A DNA stretch of 64,000 bases, taken from contig JAJEEA010000419.1 in assembly GCA_022821235.1 (NCBI GenBank), positions 2,095 through 66,094 of the forward strand. Direction: 5' to 3'. Position numbers and translations under genes: made by a program. Shown piece by piece: positions 51,962 to 60,320 of this stretch. The stretch is from Vicinamibacteria bacterium (GTDB taxonomy: Bacteria > Acidobacteriota > Vicinamibacteria > Vicinamibacterales > UBA8438). Each line of letters begins with the position of its first letter. Positions within the stretch are counted from its first letter, which is position 1. The notes below the pieces were generated by a model. It was given only the letters and a program-made list of their open reading frames with translations. It had not been told where the DNA came from and did no database searches.

Positions 51962-52025
51962 TCCGCCTCGGACGGTCCGACGCCCCGGGTCCCGCTGCCG
52001 CTGGTGGATCCAGGCGTCGTTGGCG

Positions 52026-52988
52026 TCAGCGGCCTGCCTCGGCGGCCGCCTCCTCGAGCCGCGCGCCGGCGAGCATGTTCGCGGCGGCGTAGTTGCCTTC
52101 GTGACAGGCGTTCTCGAAGAGCGGCAGCGGGTTCTGCCGCAGCGTCTGGACGGCGGTCCAGGGGGCCGTCCAGATGGTCGGGTCCTCGATGGTGTACTCG
52201 TACTCGATGACGCCGGGACCGACCCGGGTGAACCGCTCGACCAGGTGGGCCTCCCGGCTCGCGCCGACCAGGGGCAGCCAGCGGTCGAAGCTCGTGGTCT
52301 CGACCACCAGGGTGTCGCCCTCCCAGCGGCCGCGCGAGTCGCCCAGCCACTGCCGGATGCCGCCGTGCGGACGGTCGGTGATGGGGATGATGCGGGTGGT
52401 GTTGAGCATCTCGACGAGCATCACCAGGTGATTCTCGGTCTGGAAGATCTGGACGTTGTTGTTGTAGGCGACGGGAAAGATGGGCAGCCCGGTCGTCCCC
52501 AGGCAGCGGTCGAAGTAGCTGAGGTCCTCGATCTGCTCGAGCGGCGCCGACCCGAACGACCCGGGCACGCTGAACCGCGTGCGGCCCTCGTCGGTCCGCG
52601 GGGGCCGGCGGCCGTTCGGCGGGTCGACGATGAGCGAGGTCCGCCGGGTCTCGACCACCTCGGTGCCGAAGTCCATCCAGAAGCGGTTGTACGCGCCGAT
52701 CGACCCGCCCGCCTCGGTGCGCTGGGCCGGCGCCCGATCGGCCGCCTCGTTCTGCTCGACCGCCCCCTGCTCCAGCGTCCGCGCCTCTTCCTCGGTCAGA
52801 AACTCGCGGTCGCCGTACCGTTCCGGCCGCTCGAGCGGCGTCAGGGTCCTGAAGTCCCACACGCCGTTCAGGTCGGGCACATCCCACGGCGTCCGCGGCA
52901 CGTCGCCGGTCTGGCCGGCAGCCCCGGCCGGCGCCAGCAGCAGCGCCAGTGCGAGCAGGGTGGTCACGGACTGATGAGATGCGCTCAT
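52026..52988 (-). CDS. conserved secreted protein of unknown function (paralogue of 46581..47543)
   Basis: Signal peptide. VPDLNGVWDFRTLTPLERP, TSLIVDPPNGRRP, YNNNVQIFQTENHLVML, ACHEGNY. Confidence 0.6.
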   Translation of the reverse strand: MSASHQSVTTLLALALLLAPAGAAGQTGDVPRTPWDVPDLNGVWDFRTLTPLERPERYGDREFLTEEEARTLEQGAVEQNEAADRAPAQRTEAGGSIGAYNRFWMDFGTEVVETRRTSLIVDPPNGRRPPRTDEGRTRFSVPGSFGSAPLEQIEDLSYFDRCLGTTGLPIFPVAYNNNVQIFQTENHLVMLVEMLNTTRIIPITDRPHGGIRQWLGDSRGRWEGDTLVVETTSFDRWLPLVGASREAHLVERFTRVGPGVIEYEYTIEDPTIWTAPWTAVQTLRQNPLPLFENACHEGNYAAANMLAGARLEEAAAEAGR

Positions 52989-53085
52989 TCGGTTCTCTCC
53001 AGACAGGGTTCACTCAGACAGGTGTCGCTCACGGCTTTCGCGCCGCGGGCGCCAACTGGTTGTCAGGTCCTCGACGCCGACACCG

Positions 53086-53673
53086 TCACCCACCGAACAA
53101 CTCGTCGACCGCGAAGCTGAGCCCGGCCACGCTGGCGGCGGCCACCTCGTCGCCGCGCCTCCGGACGCGCCGGGTCGCGTAACCGTCCGGGCCGGGATCG
53201 GTATGGACGATGACGGCGGCGGCATCCACGTCCACGAGCCACATCTCGGGAATGCCGGCGCGGCCGTATCGGGGCGCCTTCTCCAGCCTGTCGTAGCGCA
53301 GCGACGAGTCGGCCACTTCGATGACGAGGAAGATATCCCCCGGCTCGGGATGGCGATCGGTGTAGAACGCCTTCCGCCGCCGCGCCACCACGAGGTCCGG
53401 TTGCGGCTCCGTATGGGGGTCGAGTCGGACCGGATTCTGGACGCTCACGTGCGCCCGGCCGGCGAGACGCGTCACGAGCAACTCGGTCAGACGACTCACC
53501 AGCCCCGCATGCAGCGCGCCGATCGGCGTCATTTCGACGATCTCTCCGTCGATCAGCTCGACCCGATCGTCCTCGGTGAAGATCCCCGCCTCGCCCATGC
53601 GGGCGAACTCGTCGACCGTGAAGCGGTACCGCTGGACGCCGGCGACGCGTTCCTGCTCTGCTGCCAAGGCCAT
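53086..53673 (-). CDS. Uma2-family (DUF820) PD-(D/E)XK endonuclease
   Basis: ELIDGEIVEMTPIG..H, PDLVVA, LVIEVADSS, K..YGRAGIPEMWLVD. Confidence 0.8.
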   Translation of the reverse strand: MALAAEQERVAGVQRYRFTVDEFARMGEAGIFTEDDRVELIDGEIVEMTPIGALHAGLVSRLTELLVTRLAGRAHVSVQNPVRLDPHTEPQPDLVVARRRKAFYTDRHPEPGDIFLVIEVADSSLRYDRLEKAPRYGRAGIPEMWLVDVDAAAVIVHTDPGPDGYATRRVRRRGDEVAAASVAGLSFAVDELFGG

Positions 53674-53850
53674 GGCGCACCCTCAATCGAGCTCGTGCAC
53701 GGCACGTCCCATCATAGTCCACCCGCAAAAGCGAGGCTCCGGCTGAAGTCGAGATCTCGGGTGGGCATGATGAACCCATGACGCCGGCAATCTTGACAGC
53801 CCATCTGGCCAGAACGACAATCTAGACATGAGAACTAGCCAGGAATCCAC

Positions 53851-54105
53851 ATGACCGATTGGCCCCTGCACGACGCCAAGAACCGGTTCAGCGCCGTCGT
53901 CGACGCCGCGCTCGCGGGCGTGCCGCAACGGGTGACGCGGCGCGGCAGGCCCGCCGTCGTGGTGCTCGCGGCAGAGGAATACGAGCGCCTGATTCACCTG
54001 GAGAAGGCACGAGCGCCGACGTTCCCGGATCTGTTGCTCGCGATCCCGCAGGGCGGCGACGAGTTCGAGCGCATGCGACTGCCTTCCCGGCCGGTGCAGT
54101 TCTGA
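53851..54105 (+). CDS. Phd/YefM-family antitoxin
   Basis: LHDAKNRFSAVVDAALAGVPQRVTRRGRPAVVVLAAEEYERL. The stop overlaps the vapC ATG. Confidence 0.8.
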   Translation: MTDWPLHDAKNRFSAVVDAALAGVPQRVTRRGRPAVVVLAAEEYERLIHLEKARAPTFPDLLLAIPQGGDEFERMRLPSRPVQF

Positions 54106-54545
54106 TGTTCCTGGTCGATACCGACGTGCTGTCCCTGCTCCGCAGACCCGAACGCAACCCCGGCGTCAGCCGATGGATGGCCGGACAGCGGACCGCCGAC
54201 GTCTACGTGAGCGTCGTATCGGTCGCGGAGATCGAGCGCGGAGTCATGCGACAACGGGAGCGCGACCCCGCGTTCGCCCGCGCCCTCGCCACCTGGCTGG
54301 ACAGCGTGCTCTCGCTGTACGGCGATCGGATTCTCCCTGTCGACGCGTCAACCGCCCGGCGTTGCGGCCGCCTGTCCGGCGATCTCGGACATGAAGGCAC
54401 GGACCTGCTGATTGCGGCCACCGCCCTCGAGCACGGCTTGACGGTGGTGACCCGCAACGTCCGGCACTTCGAACCGACCGGCGTGTCGTGCCTGGATCCA
54501 TCCGACACCGGTTCCGGCGTTCCTCGCGAACGGCACCCCTCATGA
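54105..54545 (+). CDS. vapC: PIN-domain toxin VapC (FitB-like)
   Basis: MFLVDTDVLS..., acidic residues spaced as in PIN (D5, E, D, TRN), and 1-nt overlap with the antitoxin. Confidence 0.85.
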   Translation: MFLVDTDVLSLLRRPERNPGVSRWMAGQRTADVYVSVVSVAEIERGVMRQRERDPAFARALATWLDSVLSLYGDRILPVDASTARRCGRLSGDLGHEGTDLLIAATALEHGLTVVTRNVRHFEPTGVSCLDPSDTGSGVPRERHPS

Positions 54546-54757
54546 AGGCGCTCATCGGACCCCGGCGTCATCGCTGTCGAGGGCATGGCGGCCCACCCGC
54601 ATCGCCCGCGCGATCCACTCGCCAGGATGAGTCGAGGTAGCGCGTGACCGCCTCGCGAACGACCCAGGCGACCGACGCCCGTCCGTTTCGGGCGATGTTC
54701 GTGATGTCAATGCCCGACTACCCCGAATGCCGCCCAAAGTTGCGCAAGGCACTCAAT

Positions 54758-54787
54758 AGTTGCGCGTAGAATCGTCTACGCGCAACT
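54758..54787. repeat. perfect 13-bp inverted repeat AGTTGCGCGTAGA-atcg-TCTACGCGCAACT
   Basis: Read directly. A third partial copy, AGTTGCGC, is at 54738-54745. Confidence 0.8.
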
Positions 54788-54820
54788 TCAGGGAGCATCG
54801 TGGCACGCCGCATACCGGAA

Positions 54821-55024
54821 GAGTCCAGCGAGCCGATGGGCAGCACGATGTACTGCTTCCCCCCCGTGCAGGTAGGTGATCGGAGAGCCGACGTTGCCGG
54901 CCGGGAACGTCGGCTCCCAGACCACGTCGCCGGTCTCCTTGTCGAAGGCGCGGAAGCCCTTGCCGCCGTCGGGGCCGGCGCCGGGCGGAATGCGGACCAT
55001 GATGGGGTCGCCCTCGCTGACGAA
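54821..55024 (-). pseudogene. duplicate fragment of the 3' end of the PQQ dehydrogenase gene 57982..59949
   Basis: Manual alignment to 58018-58218 gives about 9 substitutions plus a C7 versus C6 run difference over about 200 nt. It encodes FVSEGDPIMVRIPPGAGPDGGKGFRAFDKETGDVVWEPTFPAGNVGSPITY.... Confidence 0.8.
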
Positions 55025-55276
55025 CATGCCAGCCTCCCGGATACCCTTCTGAAGGCAGGCTAGCAAGGCTAGCAGGCTATCATCCCGCTACCCGACTCGC
55101 GGCGAGACCGGGGTTCGCCGCCGCCCTCTTCACCCCGTCGCCGCAGGCCCTGTCCGCGTTCGGGGCCGTCCGTGCACGGTCAGCGCCGGCCACTCGATAC
55201 CCTTCCGCAGCCGCACCTTGATTGCATCGCAATCATGCTGTGGCTTGAGAGTCGTTGCCAGAAGAGAGGCGTCACC

Positions 55277-55327
55277 ATGGCGAGCATCACGATCCGCAAT
55301 CTCGACGACGACGTGAAGCCTGCGTGA
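55277..55327 (+). pseudogene. 16-codon remnant of a FitA/VapB-type (ribbon-helix-helix) antitoxin
   Basis: MASITIRNLDDDVKPA* matches the usual MxITIRNLDDxLK... start of these antitoxins. The palindrome TGATTGC-atc-GCAATCA at 55219-55235 lies upstream. Confidence 0.3.
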
Positions 55328-56074
55328 TTCGATGTAGTCTGGTCATCGGCTCCACTCCAGCATATGTCGTTCGGCGTCCTGGGCACCGAGCCCACTTCCC
55401 TGGCCGAACGGGCTGGATCTGCTCGATGGCACGGCTGCCGAGACGCCAAACGAGGACGCCGTTGATCGCGCCTTCGGCGGCGCGACCGGCCAGTGGCGCG
55501 AGCACACCGGCTCCCACCGCCTCTCCGGCACCTCGCCCGACTTCCGCAATCATGTCCTGCAGCGGGCCGTCCTCCGCAAGGCTGTCGCTTGCCGTCACCG
55601 CGGTGTCGGCCGCCTCGCCGGACACGTCCTGCAGCACGCCGCTCAGGTAGGTCGTCACGACCGAGCGCGGCAGAAGCAGCGCCGCCTGAACCGCGGTGGG
55701 TCGCACCCCCACAGCATCAGCAACTCTCGGAGCAACGCCATGCACGCGTACAGCACGATCGCCTGGTCGAGCAACAGGAAGCGGGACGCGGCGGTTCCGA
55801 TGCCGACCTTCACCGCGTAGGCGCGGACCCGCCGCCGCGCCGCGGTGTCCAGAATCGACTGGAACCGCCCGTTGAATGCCTCCACTCGGAGGCGGAGAGG
55901 GTCTGCGGCTCCACCAGCAGATCGCGCCGCGCGTCGTCGAGGCGCGTTCAGTATACGGTCTCCACCCCGTTGGAATCGCCGGATAGCCAGTCCGTCTCGC
56001 CGTGCGCCGGGATCGGCGCGACGCAGCCAACCGACAAGCCGTTGAACCGCATGGATGTTTCGCCTCACTGCCAT
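55287..56074 (-). CDS. DUF697/YcjF-like protein, apparent frameshift at C5 run 55706-55710
   Basis: VRAYAVKVGIGTAASRFLLLDQAIVLYACMALLRELLMLWG then, in another frame, VRPTAVQAALLL...AAEGAINGVLVWRLGSRAIEQIQPVRP. Confidence 0.45.
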
Positions 56075-56092
56075 CCGCCCTTCCGCGCCGCC

Positions 56093-57298
56093 TCACCGAC
56101 TTTTTTTCAACCTCCGTTTCCGTACCGGCCTCCCCTCCCCAGTATGGGACGATTCCGGCTCTGCGTCGTCCAGCACCATGTCGTTCTCGATGACGTCCTC
56201 GAGCGACGGGTTGAGCAGCCTCCATCGTTGGCCCATTCTCTCCAAGTCACCCCGCAGGACCACCGGTGCTTTCGTCTTGTGGGCCAAGATCGTCCGATGA
56301 TAATCGGACTGGGGAAGAACTGCGGCGACAGACTGATTGCTGCCTTCAATCGAGGTGCGCACGGTCACGGTTCCGTCCGTATCCGCTTCGTCCCGTGTCA
56401 ATCGCTGGACAAGTCCCACCAGGGTCACGTCCGCTTGCGGCTCGCGGCTGCGGAACGCGTCACTGGCCGCCCGGAGGATGGGGGCGTCGTGAGAGGCAAA
56501 CCGCGAGATGGACCTGCTGACGTCTCGCGGCCAGGTCCGCGCCCAGACCACGCTGATGTCGAGTCTGGGCAACGTCTCGGTCAGCGTGGCCAGAGCCTCG
56601 CACAGGTTGGCGCTGACACCTTGCGTCACCGCCGCCGGAAACGCATCTGCATCTCCCCCGCTCGTGTCGTCGGTCGCCCGCCGGGCCGCCGCCAGCGCCT
56701 CCGCCAAGCGACTCGTTACACGGCGCTCGATGGGTTCGTTCCGTGCGGTGGCGCCCGCCACCAGCGGCATCTGAATCGGGGGCGACACCACGGGACTCAG
56801 AAGCGTTATCACGAAGCTCCCCTCAGCGGTCTGGCCCAGCCGAACGCGTCGCAGATAGTCGTTGGCTTCCTTGTTCGCACCCGGCCGATAGAGCGGTCGG
56901 GGGCGATCGAGCGAGCACGCCGCAGCGAGGACGATGTCACGTGCGCCGCATACGAGGTTCGCCCCGGCACCGACCGGAAGGCTTCCGCTGTGGTCTCGAT
57001 CGATGGCCCGAACACGAATCACGTCGCGATCCGCAGTGATCAGATCGCGATAGACGGTCAGTACGTCCAGACCGGCTACGTCCGCGAAGGTCTCGATCAG
57101 GGCGGACACGACGCTGGCGTAATCGCCGAGATGCTCGGTTCGCGGAACGATGATTTCCGGCAGCTCTTCGCCTGCGTATATGTCCGAGTGAACGCGGTAG
57201 GGTTCGCCCCGGCGCCACCCGGCGACACGTGCGTAGGCGGAGAGCGCCGCGGGTGAAACCGCCAGCAACGCGTCCCTGTCGCGAATGCTGACCTTCAT
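56093..57298 (-). CDS. hypothetical 401-aa protein, translationally coupled to the DUF4365 gene
   Basis: ATG 57298 overlaps the upstream stop (TGATG). MKVSIRDRDALLAVSPAALSAYARVAGW.... No motif recognised. Confidence 0.6.
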   Translation of the reverse strand: MKVSIRDRDALLAVSPAALSAYARVAGWRRGEPYRVHSDIYAGEELPEIIVPRTEHLGDYASVVSALIETFADVAGLDVLTVYRDLITADRDVIRVRAIDRDHSGSLPVGAGANLVCGARDIVLAAACSLDRPRPLYRPGANKEANDYLRRVRLGQTAEGSFVITLLSPVVSPPIQMPLVAGATARNEPIERRVTSRLAEALAAARRATDDTSGGDADAFPAAVTQGVSANLCEALATLTETLPRLDISVVWARTWPRDVSRSISRFASHDAPILRAASDAFRSREPQADVTLVGLVQRLTRDEADTDGTVTVRTSIEGSNQSVAAVLPQSDYHRTILAHKTKAPVVLRGDLERMGQRWRLLNPSLEDVIENDMVLDDAEPESSHTGEGRPVRKRRLKKSR

Positions 57299-57798
57299 CA
57301 GATCTCCCCTCTCCGGGACCGTTCCATGAGCATGCGAAGAGTCTCGACGTCGAACAAGTTCCGTTCGGGAATACGGACGGTGACAGTTTCCTGTCCGGTG
57401 ACTTCGTCGTGCTCCTGCTGCAGGCTCAGCCAGTAGGCGCAACGCCTCAACACGAGTTGCTCAGGGGTGACGGTCATCCAATGCGATGCGTCCCTCGGCA
57501 GCTCGAAAACCACCAGCACCCGCGGCGTCTGAGTCGCAACACGCAGGTCGTCGTAGTTCTTGATCCCCAACCGAAACGACAAGAAGCCCTCCCGCCGTTC
57601 GCCGAGACCGGCCGTAGCCTTCAACTGTAGATCGAGGGCTGGCCGGTTGAGGCCGCCCGCCTGGATGCGGAGGTCCACGCTGTCCCGGTCCGGCGTCGAG
57701 GTCGACGTCGTATAGCCCGCGCGCGTCGCCAGGGCCTTCACGTAGACGAGGGACAATCCCTCCTTTTGGTCAGGAACGGTGAGCAGTGCGTCGGTCAT
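57298..57798 (-). CDS. DUF4365-like PD-(D/E)XK-type protein
   Basis: EGLSLVYVKALATRAGY...DRDSVDLRI...LDLQLKAT...VLVVFELP fits the DUF4365 pattern (D..GxD..i, QxK) as I recall it. Confidence 0.65.
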   Translation of the reverse strand: MTDALLTVPDQKEGLSLVYVKALATRAGYTTSTSTPDRDSVDLRIQAGGLNRPALDLQLKATAGLGERREGFLSFRLGIKNYDDLRVATQTPRVLVVFELPRDASHWMTVTPEQLVLRRCAYWLSLQQEHDEVTGQETVTVRIPERNLFDVETLRMLMERSRRGEI

Positions 57799-57981
57799 CG
57801 CGACGGGTCCAGCCGGTTCACCAGCCCGTTCCCGTTGGTCTCTTCCGGCCTGCTCATGGCTCAGCCAGCCGAAGACGAGAAACGCCGGTCCGACGTATAT
57901 CCATTGGCAGAATCATGGCCATCGCACTCCGAGCCGTCACCCCGTCCCCGGCGCATACGTCCGACCGCTTCTCGCGGCCCC

Positions 57982-59949
57982 CTACGGCAACGCCAGCGCG
58001 ATCCACTCGCCGGGGTGGTCCAGCGAGCCGATGGGCAGCACGATGTACTGCTTCCCCCCGTGCATGTAGGTGATGGGCGAGCCGACGTTGCCGGCCGGGA
58101 AGGTCGTCTCCCACACCACGTCGCCGGTCTCCTTGTCGAAGGCGCGGAAGCCCTTGCCGGCGTCGGGGCCGGCGCCGGGCGGGGTGCGGACCATGATGGG
58201 GTCGCCCTCGCTGACGAAGAGGAGGCTTCGGGTGAGCAGGGTCATCGCCCGGCCCGGCTGGCCCAGCGGGGGCAGGTCGAGGTGGGCGATCTCCGGGTGG
58301 TCGCGGGGGCCGTCGCCGTTGGCGACCATCCACACGTGCTCGCCGGTGTTCATGTCGATGGCGGTGATGCGGCCGTACGGGGGCTTGAGCAGCGGGAGGC
58401 CGCGCGGGCCCTGGGGGAACGCGCGGGTGCCGCGCGTGTAGCGCACGTTCATGCGGTCGGGGTTGCCGGGGGTCAGGTCGGCCGCGAACGTCCCCGTCAC
58501 CGACGGCACGTAGAGCATGCCGGTCTCGGGGTCGAAGCCGGCCCCGCCCCACTCGGCCCCGCCCACCGAGCCGGGGAGCTGCAGGGTGCCCTTGGTGTCT
58601 TCGTCGCCGTCGCCGCGGATCGAGGGCGGGGTGTAGATCTCCCCCAGCACGAAGGGCGCGGCGATCTCCACGGCCTCGGCCCGCAGCTCGGGGGTGAAGT
58701 CGATGAGGGTGTCGACCGAGATGCCGTGCACGTCGAACGGGGCGGGCTTGGTGGGGAACGGCTGGGTGGGCGAGATCCACTCGCCGGGGGTGTCCGAGCC
58801 GGGCACGGCCCGCTCGACGATGGGCCAGACCGGCTCGCCGGTGACCCTGTCGAAGGTGTAGGCCATGGCCTGCTTCGTGAGCTGCACCACCGCCTTGATC
58901 TCGCGGCCCTCGACGACGATGTCCATCAGGATCGGCGCCACGTTGTTGTCGTAGTCCCAGAGGTCGTGGTGCACCGTCTGGAAGTGCCACACCATCTCGC
59001 CGGTCTCGGCCCGCACGCACACGAGGCTGTTGGCGTAGAGGTTGTTGCCGGGGCGGTGCCCGCCGTACATGTCGTTGCTGGGGGCGCCGGTGGGCAGGTA
59101 GACGAGGCCGAGCTCCTCGTCGGCGCTCATCATCGTCCAGACGTTGCCCATGCCCGAGTACTCCCACGACTCGTCGAGCCAGGTCTCGACCCCCGGCTCG
59201 CCGGCCCGGGGAATCGGGTTCCAGGTCCACCGCAGGGTGCCGGTCCGGACGTCGTAGGCGCGGACGTAGCCGGGGCGGTTCTCCATGGTCAGGGGATGGT
59301 CGGCCATGGCCTGCCCCACCACGACCACGTCGCGGACGACGAGGGGCGGCGAGGTGAAGTTGAAGTCGACCAGCTCGTCGGTGTCCTCGAAGACGCGGAG
59401 GTCGACCATGCCGCCGTCGCCGAAGTCGGAGACCAGCCGGCCGGTGTCCACGTCGGTCGCCAGCAGGTACGGCGGCCGCACCGACAGGATTCGGCGGCCG
59501 GCCCCGGCGTCGTCCTCCCAGTAGCCGACCCCGCGATTGGCGGCGCCCCGCGGGGTCTCGTCGTCGGTGAGGAACGGCAGCTCCTGCACCCAGCGGGTCT
59601 CGCCCGTCGCCGGGTCGAACGCCTCGACGATGCCGATGCCGTTCGAGGCGTAGAGCACCCCGTCGACCATCAGCGGCGTCGACCGCAGGTTGTTCGAGTA
59701 GCGCAGGTTGTCCCAGCGCGCGTGCAGGCTCGCGTCGACGGCGGGGCGGCGCCACACGATGCCGAGGTCGCCGACCGTGTCCGCGTTGATCTGGTCCAGC
59801 GCCGCGTAACGGGTGAACCCGCTGTCGCCGCCGTGGACGCGCCACTCGCCGTCGGTGCCGTGCTGGGCCGCCGCGGCCCCCGCCACGACCAGCATGCCCA
59901 GCAGGGCCGCAACGCCGCGGGCCGGTCTCGCCGTCGTCTTGTTCGCCAT
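57982..59949 (-). CDS. secreted PQQ-dependent dehydrogenase (beta-propeller quinoprotein)
   Basis: ATG at 59949 with a signal peptide. GGDSGFTRYAALDQINADTVGDL, repeated propeller W-motifs, and tail GSLDHPGEWIALALP. Confidence 0.85.
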   Translation of the reverse strand: MANKTTARPARGVAALLGMLVVAGAAAAQHGTDGEWRVHGGDSGFTRYAALDQINADTVGDLGIVWRRPAVDASLHARWDNLRYSNNLRSTPLMVDGVLYASNGIGIVEAFDPATGETRWVQELPFLTDDETPRGAANRGVGYWEDDAGAGRRILSVRPPYLLATDVDTGRLVSDFGDGGMVDLRVFEDTDELVDFNFTSPPLVVRDVVVVGQAMADHPLTMENRPGYVRAYDVRTGTLRWTWNPIPRAGEPGVETWLDESWEYSGMGNVWTMMSADEELGLVYLPTGAPSNDMYGGHRPGNNLYANSLVCVRAETGEMVWHFQTVHHDLWDYDNNVAPILMDIVVEGREIKAVVQLTKQAMAYTFDRVTGEPVWPIVERAVPGSDTPGEWISPTQPFPTKPAPFDVHGISVDTLIDFTPELRAEAVEIAAPFVLGEIYTPPSIRGDGDEDTKGTLQLPGSVGGAEWGGAGFDPETGMLYVPSVTGTFAADLTPGNPDRMNVRYTRGTRAFPQGPRGLPLLKPPYGRITAIDMNTGEHVWMVANGDGPRDHPEIAHLDLPPLGQPGRAMTLLTRSLLFVSEGDPIMVRTPPGAGPDAGKGFRAFDKETGDVVWETTFPAGNVGSPITYMHGGKQYIVLPIGSLDHPGEWIALALP

Positions 59950-60320
59950 CGGTTCCCCGTCTCCTGCTTGACTTCTGCCTGACGCTGTCCCCGCCCCGGA
60001 CGCCGGCGCCCTGGCGGCAGCGTCGACTGCCCCAACCGAGCCGGGCCGGAGTCCCCGCAGTGCCGCCGCGCAGACTCCCGGCCCGGAAACCGTCGCCGGC
60101 AACTCCGATTCGCCGCCCGACAGCCGTCTGCCCCGCTACTCGTGCCGCGGCTACCAGGATCCGCGGTGAAGGTCCCCGCTGCATTCGAGCGGCGATGCAT
60201 CCCGTCTGACGGCGTCGTTCCTCGGTTGCCTAATGGCCACCCGCGCCTTGTCAGGCGAGCCCGTCGGCCGTCCACTGGCGCCCTCCGGGCGCGGTGCAAC
60301 GCGGGGCTTCACCACGGGCG

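Follow-up and report, generated by a model that had tools for sequence, protein, structure and literature searches.

A partial copy of a PQQ-dehydrogenase 3' end lies as a relic, apparently within an antitoxin gene, at a variable cassette site of a sponge-associated Vicinamibacterales genome

We analyzed a 64,000-nucleotide stretch of contig JAJEEA010000419.1 (assembly GCA_022821235.1, Vicinamibacteria bacterium; hereafter the window), which comes from a metagenome-assembled genome (MAG) of a sponge-associated member of the Vicinamibacterales. Within it, an intact gene for a PQQ-dependent dehydrogenase (the PQQ gene) is followed downstream by a candidate defence gene pair, a broken DUF697-like gene, the remnant of a FitA-like antitoxin gene and, ~3 kb away and in the same orientation, a partial second copy of its own 3' end; beyond this copy lie a VapBC toxin-antitoxin (TA) cassette and a putative endonuclease gene (Table 1). 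The original prediction saw here the footprint of an integrated element that had entered the 3' end of the gene, supplied a replacement end and left the displaced original behind as a direct repeat. Our results suggest instead that the partial copy, or relic, is an old patch made by illegitimate recombination, as a local duplication, in a hot spot of cassette exchange, where it was followed by the accretion of cassettes and by decay. We put the probability of this reading at roughly 70%.

The larger piece of the relic (relic b, 54823-55024, 202 nt) repeats positions 58018-58218 of the PQQ gene (201 nt) at 95.05% identity (BLAST E value 1e-86); the two differ by 9 substitutions and by an additional C that relic b has in a C-run. 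The recurrence of the last ~200 nt of the gene thus held as originally described, with its true start 2 nt to the right of the 54821 first claimed. A smaller piece (relic a, 54592-54629) matches 57980-58017, which comprises the last 36 nt of the PQQ gene and the stop codon, at 82% identity, and it includes the exact 16-mer GCGCGATCCACTCGCC at 54609-54624, which had already been noticed. The two pieces are collinear and are separated by 193 nt (54630-54822). Codons that differ between relic b and the intact gene comprise 4 synonymous and 4 non-synonymous changes. A paralogue elsewhere in the genome, which the original prediction itself had raised as a source that would undermine it, was ruled out: the genome has dozens of PQQ-dehydrogenase paralogues, and the best non-adjacent match to the fragment is only ~78% identical, versus 95% for the adjacent gene. 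Therefore, the fragment derives from the adjacent PQQ gene or its orthologue.

For comparison, we used 20 kb around the end of the orthologous PQQ gene in 20 relatives of the same genus, which are designated here by G numbers (this genome is G000). In a sister species with a closed chromosome (OZ253457.1, G014), the relic has identical junctions and lies inside a block that is 96% identical to window positions 52024-55318. Independent Logan unitigs from the sponge-metagenome run with the best coverage of the stretch (91% of it) cross every junction. These two observations ruled out an assembly chimera, and the arrangement of relic a, 193 nt and relic b was also found at 92-96% identity in several other independent sponge-associated samples. 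The structure is therefore real and persistent. The extra C at ~54859, which frameshifts the relic, is missing from the unitigs of six runs, the best-covered run among them, and may be an assembly error or a strain polymorphism. The runs that cover the stretch best are sponge metagenomes, and all orthologues of the PQQ gene come from Vicinamibacterales (Acidobacteriota) MAGs.

The evidence that carries our reading comes from the sequences on either side of the relic. On its right, positions 55025-55055 correspond to the 5' leader and ATG of an AbrB/MazE-type antitoxin gene, with 24/29 identity to the AbrB leader GAAAGGATATCCAGGAGGCTGGCATG of G021; a similar AbrB leader is also present in G003. 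Read on the minus strand, this segment upstream of relic b contains an operator-like repeat, a GGGAGG Shine-Dalgarno (SD) sequence and an ATG in frame with FVSEGDP, the first residues encoded by relic b. On its left, the ~48 nt that separate relic a from the stop codon of VapC (54542-54589) match the AbrB 3' end and the start of the PIN toxin gene of G021 at 39/48 positions, and in G003 this AbrB 3' sequence is contiguous with the homology to the VapC end. G003 has an intact AbrB-type antitoxin gene at the position of the relic, adjoining the same VapBC cassette, with its promoter ~90 nt from the PQQ stop codon. Both remnants are collinear with a single antitoxin gene that relatives carry intact at this locus, in agreement with an assignment to the AbrB/MazE-PIN type II TA systems. 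As judged from these alignments, the two sides of the relic are the two ends of a single AbrB-type antitoxin gene. Because the relic is flanked by both parts of one gene, the PQQ piece reads as an inserted patch rather than a displaced end in its native context, and it would have taken the place of codons 2 to ~62 of the orphan antitoxin gene. At the right joint, ATG|TTCGTCAGC, the AbrB gene has ATG-GTCGT and the PQQ gene CTC-TTCGT, leaving at most 4 nt of offset microhomology.

The same finding bears on several earlier candidates. We had considered the fragment as a native displaced end beside VapBC, or as the end of an import by homology-facilitated illegitimate recombination (HFIR) anchored in VapBC; both were dropped because the supposed flank is the antitoxin 3' end. 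When the genus was searched, no members other than G000 and G014 had the native context of 55025-55190. The tandem repeat GGCTAGCA(A) at 55058-55083, which had been proposed as an att-like repeat, proved to be a three-copy expansion of a unit that is single-copy in G014, lying in the operator and leader of the truncated AbrB gene, and is not an att site. In a separate observation at this site, ~30 nt of VapC-end/AbrB-PIN relic sequence (CGAACGCTCCATGAA.GGGCGCATCG) are locally duplicated in tandem in G010, ~110 nt ahead of its PQQ stop codon; this is another small illegitimate duplication.

The 193-nt piece between relics a and b contains, on the minus strand, a 3'-truncated gene of the CopG-type ribbon-helix-helix (RHH) class, followed by a palindromic operator (54758-54787) and, on the plus strand, an SD sequence and the first 8 codons of a Fic gene (GTG at 54800). 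G017 and G013 have the RHH-Fic cassette (~1.66 kb) at full length, and G002 has it with a shorter Fic open reading frame (ORF) of 260 aa; the 467-aa Fic-family protein gave a match to Pfam Fic PF02661. Positions 54629-54708 are in addition 89-91% identical to the RHH gene of a restriction-modification cassette in G021, G008 and G013. In PQQ coordinates, the insertion point falls precisely between the counterparts of 58017 and 58018, and each joint shows 1 nt of overlap or microhomology. G017 has the same joint between relic a and the cassette, followed by the entire RHH-Fic cassette and no relic b, and in G004 relics a and b are uninterrupted. The GAGTC sequences at the flanks of the 193-nt insert were examined as a possible target-site duplication, which was ruled out: homology to the RHH gene of G021 places the left GAGTC within the truncated RHH gene (..RYLDS), and the intact PQQ gene has TGGTC at that position.

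Table 1. Features of the variable interval and its borders (positions in the window).
Feature	Position	Strand	Evidence or remarks
Conserved left border gene (320-aa ORF)	52026-52988	-	91-97% identity in 13/20 genus relatives, directly left of the variable region
Uma2-family putative endonuclease	53086-53673	-	Pfam PF05685 9e-35; PADLOC PDC-S03 5e-15
Phd/YefM antitoxin and PIN-domain VapC toxin	53851-54105 and 54105-54545	+	Pfam PF02604 1e-14; PF01850 1e-13
AbrB/MazE-type antitoxin 3'-end relic (last ~13 codons), ATGA overlap and first codons of its PIN toxin	54542-54589	-	39/48 ungapped to the AbrB-PIN junction of G021
PQQ relic a: stop codon and last 12 codons	54592-54629	-	82% to 57980-58017
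193-nt piece of the RHH-Fic cassette (cassette C)	54630-54822		Left end of the ~1.66-kb cassette
PQQ relic b: codons 629-695 of the 706-codon ORF 57982-60102 (FVSEGDP to GSLD)	54823-55024	-	95% to 58018-58218
AbrB-type antitoxin leader/operator, fused in frame to relic b	55025-55100	-	ATG 55025-55027; GGGAGG SD 55033-55038; GGCTAGCA x3 at 55058-55083
FitA-like RHH antitoxin remnant, 14 codons (55277-55318)	55277-55327	+	Ends at the 55318|55319 deletion junction
DUF697-like pseudogene	55319-56074	-	tblastn of the G001 334-aa ORF: frames -1, -2, -3; weak Pfam PF05128
PDC-M02B, 401-aa partner	56093-57298	-	ATG overlaps upstream stop codon; PADLOC PDLC04298 5e-119; no Pfam match
PDC-M02A, DUF4365 nuclease-fold protein	57298-57798	-	Pfam PF14280 1e-19; PADLOC PDLC04278 3e-53
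Intact PQQ-dependent dehydrogenase (655 aa), right border of the variable interval	57982-59949	-	Pfam PF01011 2e-179

The region in which the relic lies is variable throughout the genus. Homology between genomes breaks off exactly at the stop codon of the PQQ gene, which itself has full-length orthologues at 89-97% nucleotide identity (97% at the protein level) in nearly all genus members. From the left border gene to this stop codon, the interval measures 219 bp in G007, 849 bp in G005, 1157 bp in G010, 2112 bp in G015, 4970 bp in the window and 7584 bp in G021, the longest. We dissected 14 intervals, i.e., that of the window and those of 13 relatives. Their cargo includes Uma2, Phd/PIN, AbrB/PIN, FitA/PIN, a DUF433 pair, DUF697, RHH-Fic, a ~4.5-kb restriction-modification cassette with an RHH controller, N6/N4 methylases with a PLD nuclease, HNH-DUF222, a group II intron and the DUF4365 pair. 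The last of these is formed in the window by two adjacent genes with an ATGA overlap, whose products both match the PADLOC profiles of the candidate defence system PDC-M02 (2.9e-53 and 5e-119) and are predicted to belong to it.

Each part of the window interval has its own distribution among the relatives. The Uma2 gene is shared only with G001, G014 and, in part, G003, and the Phd/PIN VapBC cassette with G001, G003, G004, G010, G014 and G017. Positions 55025-55318 are shared with G014, and 55191-55318 also with G001 and G005; the DUF697 segment 55319-55949 is shared with G014, G001 and G006; and positions 56090-57981, containing PDC-M02, are shared only with G015, which lacks the relic and has this pair as the sole cargo beside the PQQ stop codon. 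G001 carries FitAB and DUF697 without the relic, and it has a deletion of 653 bp that extends into the VapC end. In G014, which has the same relic, a group II intron replaces PDC-M02, 137 nt from the PQQ stop codon. This intron (L013 13896-15864) matches Rfam RF02003 and RF00029 and encodes a 463-aa reverse transcriptase/maturase with RVT_1 and GIIM domains; the remnant of a similar intron lies near the left border gene in G004. The cassettes are also eroded. The DUF697-like gene of the window is broken over three reading frames, and at the 55318|55319 junction G000 lacks 1333 bp that G014 and G001 carry, including a full 81-aa FitA (PF22513, 1e-20) with its PIN toxin; the deletion left 14 FitA codons, and its junction is without microhomology. 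The interval therefore bore out one part of what had been originally described, namely that only accessory genes lie between the two copies (the FitA remnant, the broken DUF697 gene, and DUF4365 with its partner), all of them variable. From these distributions, it is a mosaic of independently distributed cassettes, and the site has what marks a hot spot for defence and TA cassettes flanked by core genes: conserved flanks around hypervariable cargo in which genes for TA, restriction-modification and defence are enriched, and relatives whose site is empty.

Three observations on the variable region stand somewhat apart. The 42 nt at 55277-55318, which encode the FitA N-terminus (MASITIRNLDDDVK), were covered 10-50 times as deeply as the adjoining sequence in all the metagenomes examined and had many different continuations there, which points to an antitoxin N-terminus that recurs many times, in different loci or organisms. 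In another sponge sample (run X4), a contig joins the VapC end (54563) straight to 57974, 8 nt before the PQQ stop codon, which suggests a strain with nothing between VapBC and the PQQ gene; its support on one side is 35 nt at 90%, and it may come from a relative such as G010. Finally, G004 contains, between the relic and the PQQ gene, a low-GC ORF of 102 aa (L021 15404-15712; C-terminus ..LFPGLGEAANAITRRY), which, judged by eye, looks like a remnant of another accessory gene.

The relic is found in more than one species, and its pieces share features. The junction between the AbrB 3' end and relic a is identical in G000, G014, G017 and G004. A G>A change at 58012 is common to the relics of G000, G014, G004 and also G017, and within relic b a T>G change at 58107 and a C>G change at 58114 are common to those of G000, G014 and G004; the derived states at 58012 and 58107 occur in no intact gene. 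Because of the shared left junction and these shared derived states, we infer that the relic goes back to a single old event and was later spread or lost. Other PQQ scraps occur at cassette junctions, left of a shared restriction-modification cassette, in G013 (L022 interval 1901-2008), where the scrap corresponds to 58295-58407 and is 88-89% identical to the G000 gene and to the gene of G013 itself, and in G021 (L020 interval 1050-1104), where it corresponds to 58602-58656 at 91-94% identity. Altogether, pieces from different parts of the PQQ gene are present in 6 of the 21 genus genomes, and their boundaries within the gene vary by species (58193, 58218, 58407 and 58656); there is thus no common att core. 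A scan of 80 more distant orthologous loci outside the genus found no relics.

We propose the following history. The region downstream of the PQQ gene would be a hot spot throughout the genus, at which small cassettes (TA, restriction-modification, Fic and candidate defence) come in, replace one another and decay, with no recombinase dedicated to the process. The ancestor would have resembled G003 in having an orphan AbrB-type antitoxin gene on the strand of the PQQ gene and ~90 nt beyond its stop codon. AbrB codons 2 to ~62 would then have given way to ~240 nt copied from the PQQ 3' end, reaching from a few nucleotides past the stop codon up to the codon before FVSEGDP, an illegitimate step that could have proceeded by a double template switch, by tandem duplication of a unit comprising the PQQ end, the spacer, the AbrB leader and the ATG followed by deletion, or by end-joining capture. 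As comparison with the relatives shows, the 193-nt RHH-Fic piece was later inserted exactly between relics a and b; FitAB, the DUF433 pair and DUF697, and later PDC-M02, would have been added between the relic and the stop codon, or exchanged at the boundary that this codon forms; and the 1333-bp deletion, together with several frameshifts, eroded these cassettes. The joints at the patch ends, at the ends of the 193-nt insert and at the 1333-bp deletion are all illegitimate, with 0-4 nt of microhomology, and Ku is encoded in the genome. Since a G003-like template would have been only ~90 nt away, these features together led us to read the patch as duplicated locally. The relic is debris that has no function, and in the lineage that survived the PQQ gene has been uninterrupted throughout.

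Several points weigh against this history. The shared derived sites are few (3 observed versus ~0.9 expected by chance, in relics of ~240 nt), so that the argument for a single origin rests mainly on the shared left junction. Relic b is far less decayed in G000 and G014 (95%) than in G004 (~77%), which needs gene conversion or unequal rates. The single-base precision with which the 193-nt piece lies between relics a and b is unusual for random illegitimate events. No intermediate that would single out one pathway, e.g., a tandem duplication, was found; a metagenome scan for the junction of ATG and PQQ sequence (GCCCTCGCTGACSAACATGC) returned 17 matches, all at chance level and none related to the locus.

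The alternative that survives best, which we nevertheless consider unlikely, is that the relic is a donor allele, brought in as the end of donor-strain DNA that was integrated by HFIR or by a Campbell-type single crossover of a circularised fragment. The fragment does match the intact alleles of other genus members, not the resident gene, at 58065G, 58102C, 58114G and 58015A, although these matches could equally be retained ancestral states. The cassettes of the interval clearly move between species, and HFIR is the mechanism proposed for similar arrays of displaced 3' ends in Rhs and type VI secretion system (T6SS) loci (PMC5361080; PMC3240628). However, both ends of the patch are illegitimate joints (0-4 nt of microhomology) within the same small gene, and no homologous anchor is evident beside them, though a later rearrangement could have erased one; with a G003-like template only ~90 nt away, a local copy is simpler.

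Much less probable is the site-specific integration that was first proposed for this locus, in which an island or prophage bearing an integrase entered the PQQ 3' end, supplied a replacement end and left the original as a repeat, its integrase and most of the island being lost later. Part of this proposal stood: accessory DNA does lie at a variable site beside a copy of the gene's own 3' end, the repeat is direct, both copies having one orientation and accessory genes separating them, and the relatives expected to lack the insert do have a single 3' end (219 bp in G007, VapBC only in G010, the intact antitoxin gene at the relic's place in G003). Moreover, the target gene is intact, full length at 655 aa, as with a replacement end, and of the codons that differ, half do so synonymously, as would be expected if both alleles had once been functional. 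What failed was the claim that 55025-57981 are the remains of one integrated element. The fragment is flanked left and right by the halves of a single antitoxin gene and not by what natively lies downstream of the PQQ gene; the DNA between the copies is a mosaic with independent histories, never present or absent as one unit (PDC-M02 only in G015, FitAB and DUF697 only in G001, the relic with another right half in G014); the PQQ relics of other species end elsewhere, so that boundaries vary and a common core is lacking; and the gene-derived sequence itself is the only repeat. The absence of an integrase, which had been noted at the outset, was confirmed in the dissected intervals, where no recombinase was present among the ORFs, and PF00589 had no match on the 76-kb contig; serine recombinases were not searched for genome-wide. 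No tRNA lies near the site.

Hardly credible, finally, is that the relic was kept for regulation, the captured Fic promoter and start (54758-54822) driving a ~200-nt RNA antisense to relic b and 95% complementary to the PQQ mRNA 3' end, or the AbrB promoter a small PQQ-derived peptide: the antisense ORF (54800-55063) is preceded by an operator palindrome, an SD and a GTG that are all intact, as are the SD and ATG in frame with relic b on the other strand, relic b is better kept where the promoter is present (G000 and G014) than where it is lacking (G004), and the arrangement persists in several sponge samples, but the G014 copy has extra 1- and 2-nt insertions that break the peptide frame, the relics of G000 and G014 diverge as much as the flanking DNA (95.5% versus 96%), the only metatranscriptome containing this stretch yielded no contig across a relic junction (its two relevant contigs represent the full RHH-Fic cassette of a relative and an intact PQQ gene), and G001 and G017 lost relic b without visible consequence.

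The relic reads as ordinary genome archaeology: itself inactive, it has its value as a historical record of how TA and candidate phage-defence cassettes turn over at a fixed site beside a core metabolic gene. In these uncultured sponge-associated Acidobacteriota, such turnover would proceed without integrases, via illegitimate joints that leave datable scraps. A more speculative extension, which we regard as doubtful, is that the flank of the PQQ stop codon is an integrase-free cassette-exchange site in sponge-associated Vicinamibacterales that turns over by templated patches of 55-240 nt copied from neighbouring DNA, among which would be both the PQQ pieces and the precisely inserted 193-nt cassette piece. 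If this were so, short templated patches would be the signature of Ku/LigD end-joining or of template switching of the kind seen in microhomology-mediated break-induced replication driving the turnover of defence islands, and, if general, the pattern would offer a testable mechanism for the building of integrase-free defence islands. To our knowledge, no mechanism for defence-island turnover is known in this phylum. The locus also advises caution, in that a duplicated gene end is not always the att site of an integrated element.

Among known systems, the arrangement at first sight resembles that of e14 and phage 21 at icd in E. coli K-12, where the intact 3' end of the gene is accompanied by a slightly diverged duplicate (icdC) kilobases downstream (PMC13626634, citing Hill et al. 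1989, PMC210168). In both, the gene 3' end is duplicated in the same orientation, accessory genes lie between the copies and the gene is intact (PMC13626634). However, e14 has its own integrase, a defined att core and precise excision, with icdC at the end of the prophage, whereas the present locus lacks both a recombinase and a common core, its duplicate is embedded in an antitoxin gene, and a mosaic of cassettes that move independently of one another fills the space between the copies. Since a recombinase, a common core, presence or absence as a unit and a native context were all looked for and none was found, the locus does not fit the e14/icd type. Rhs and T6SS effector-immunity loci provide a second comparison. 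There, orphaned 3' gene fragments pile up downstream of an intact gene, which has been ascribed to illegitimate joints and not to an integrase (PMC5361080), and the orphaned fragments downstream of the intact PQQ gene in a hot spot resemble these arrays of displaced C-termini (PMC5361080). The displaced ends of Rhs and T6SS genes, however, are functional toxin tips kept with their immunity genes, and the process diversifies the gene; the PQQ 3' end, in contrast, is conserved, and its relics are small (55-240 nt), non-functional scraps at cassette junctions. The site is also like the defence and TA hot spots between core genes, with conserved flanks, variable cargo rich in TA, restriction-modification, PDC-M02 and PDC-S03 genes, and empty sites in relatives, and it differs from usual defence islands in that the variable region starts exactly at a stop codon and its junctions keep scraps of the flanking core gene that record the turnover. 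Altogether, the orphaned 3' ends of Rhs and T6SS loci and the defence hot spots flanked by core genes are closer analogues of this locus than e14 at icd.

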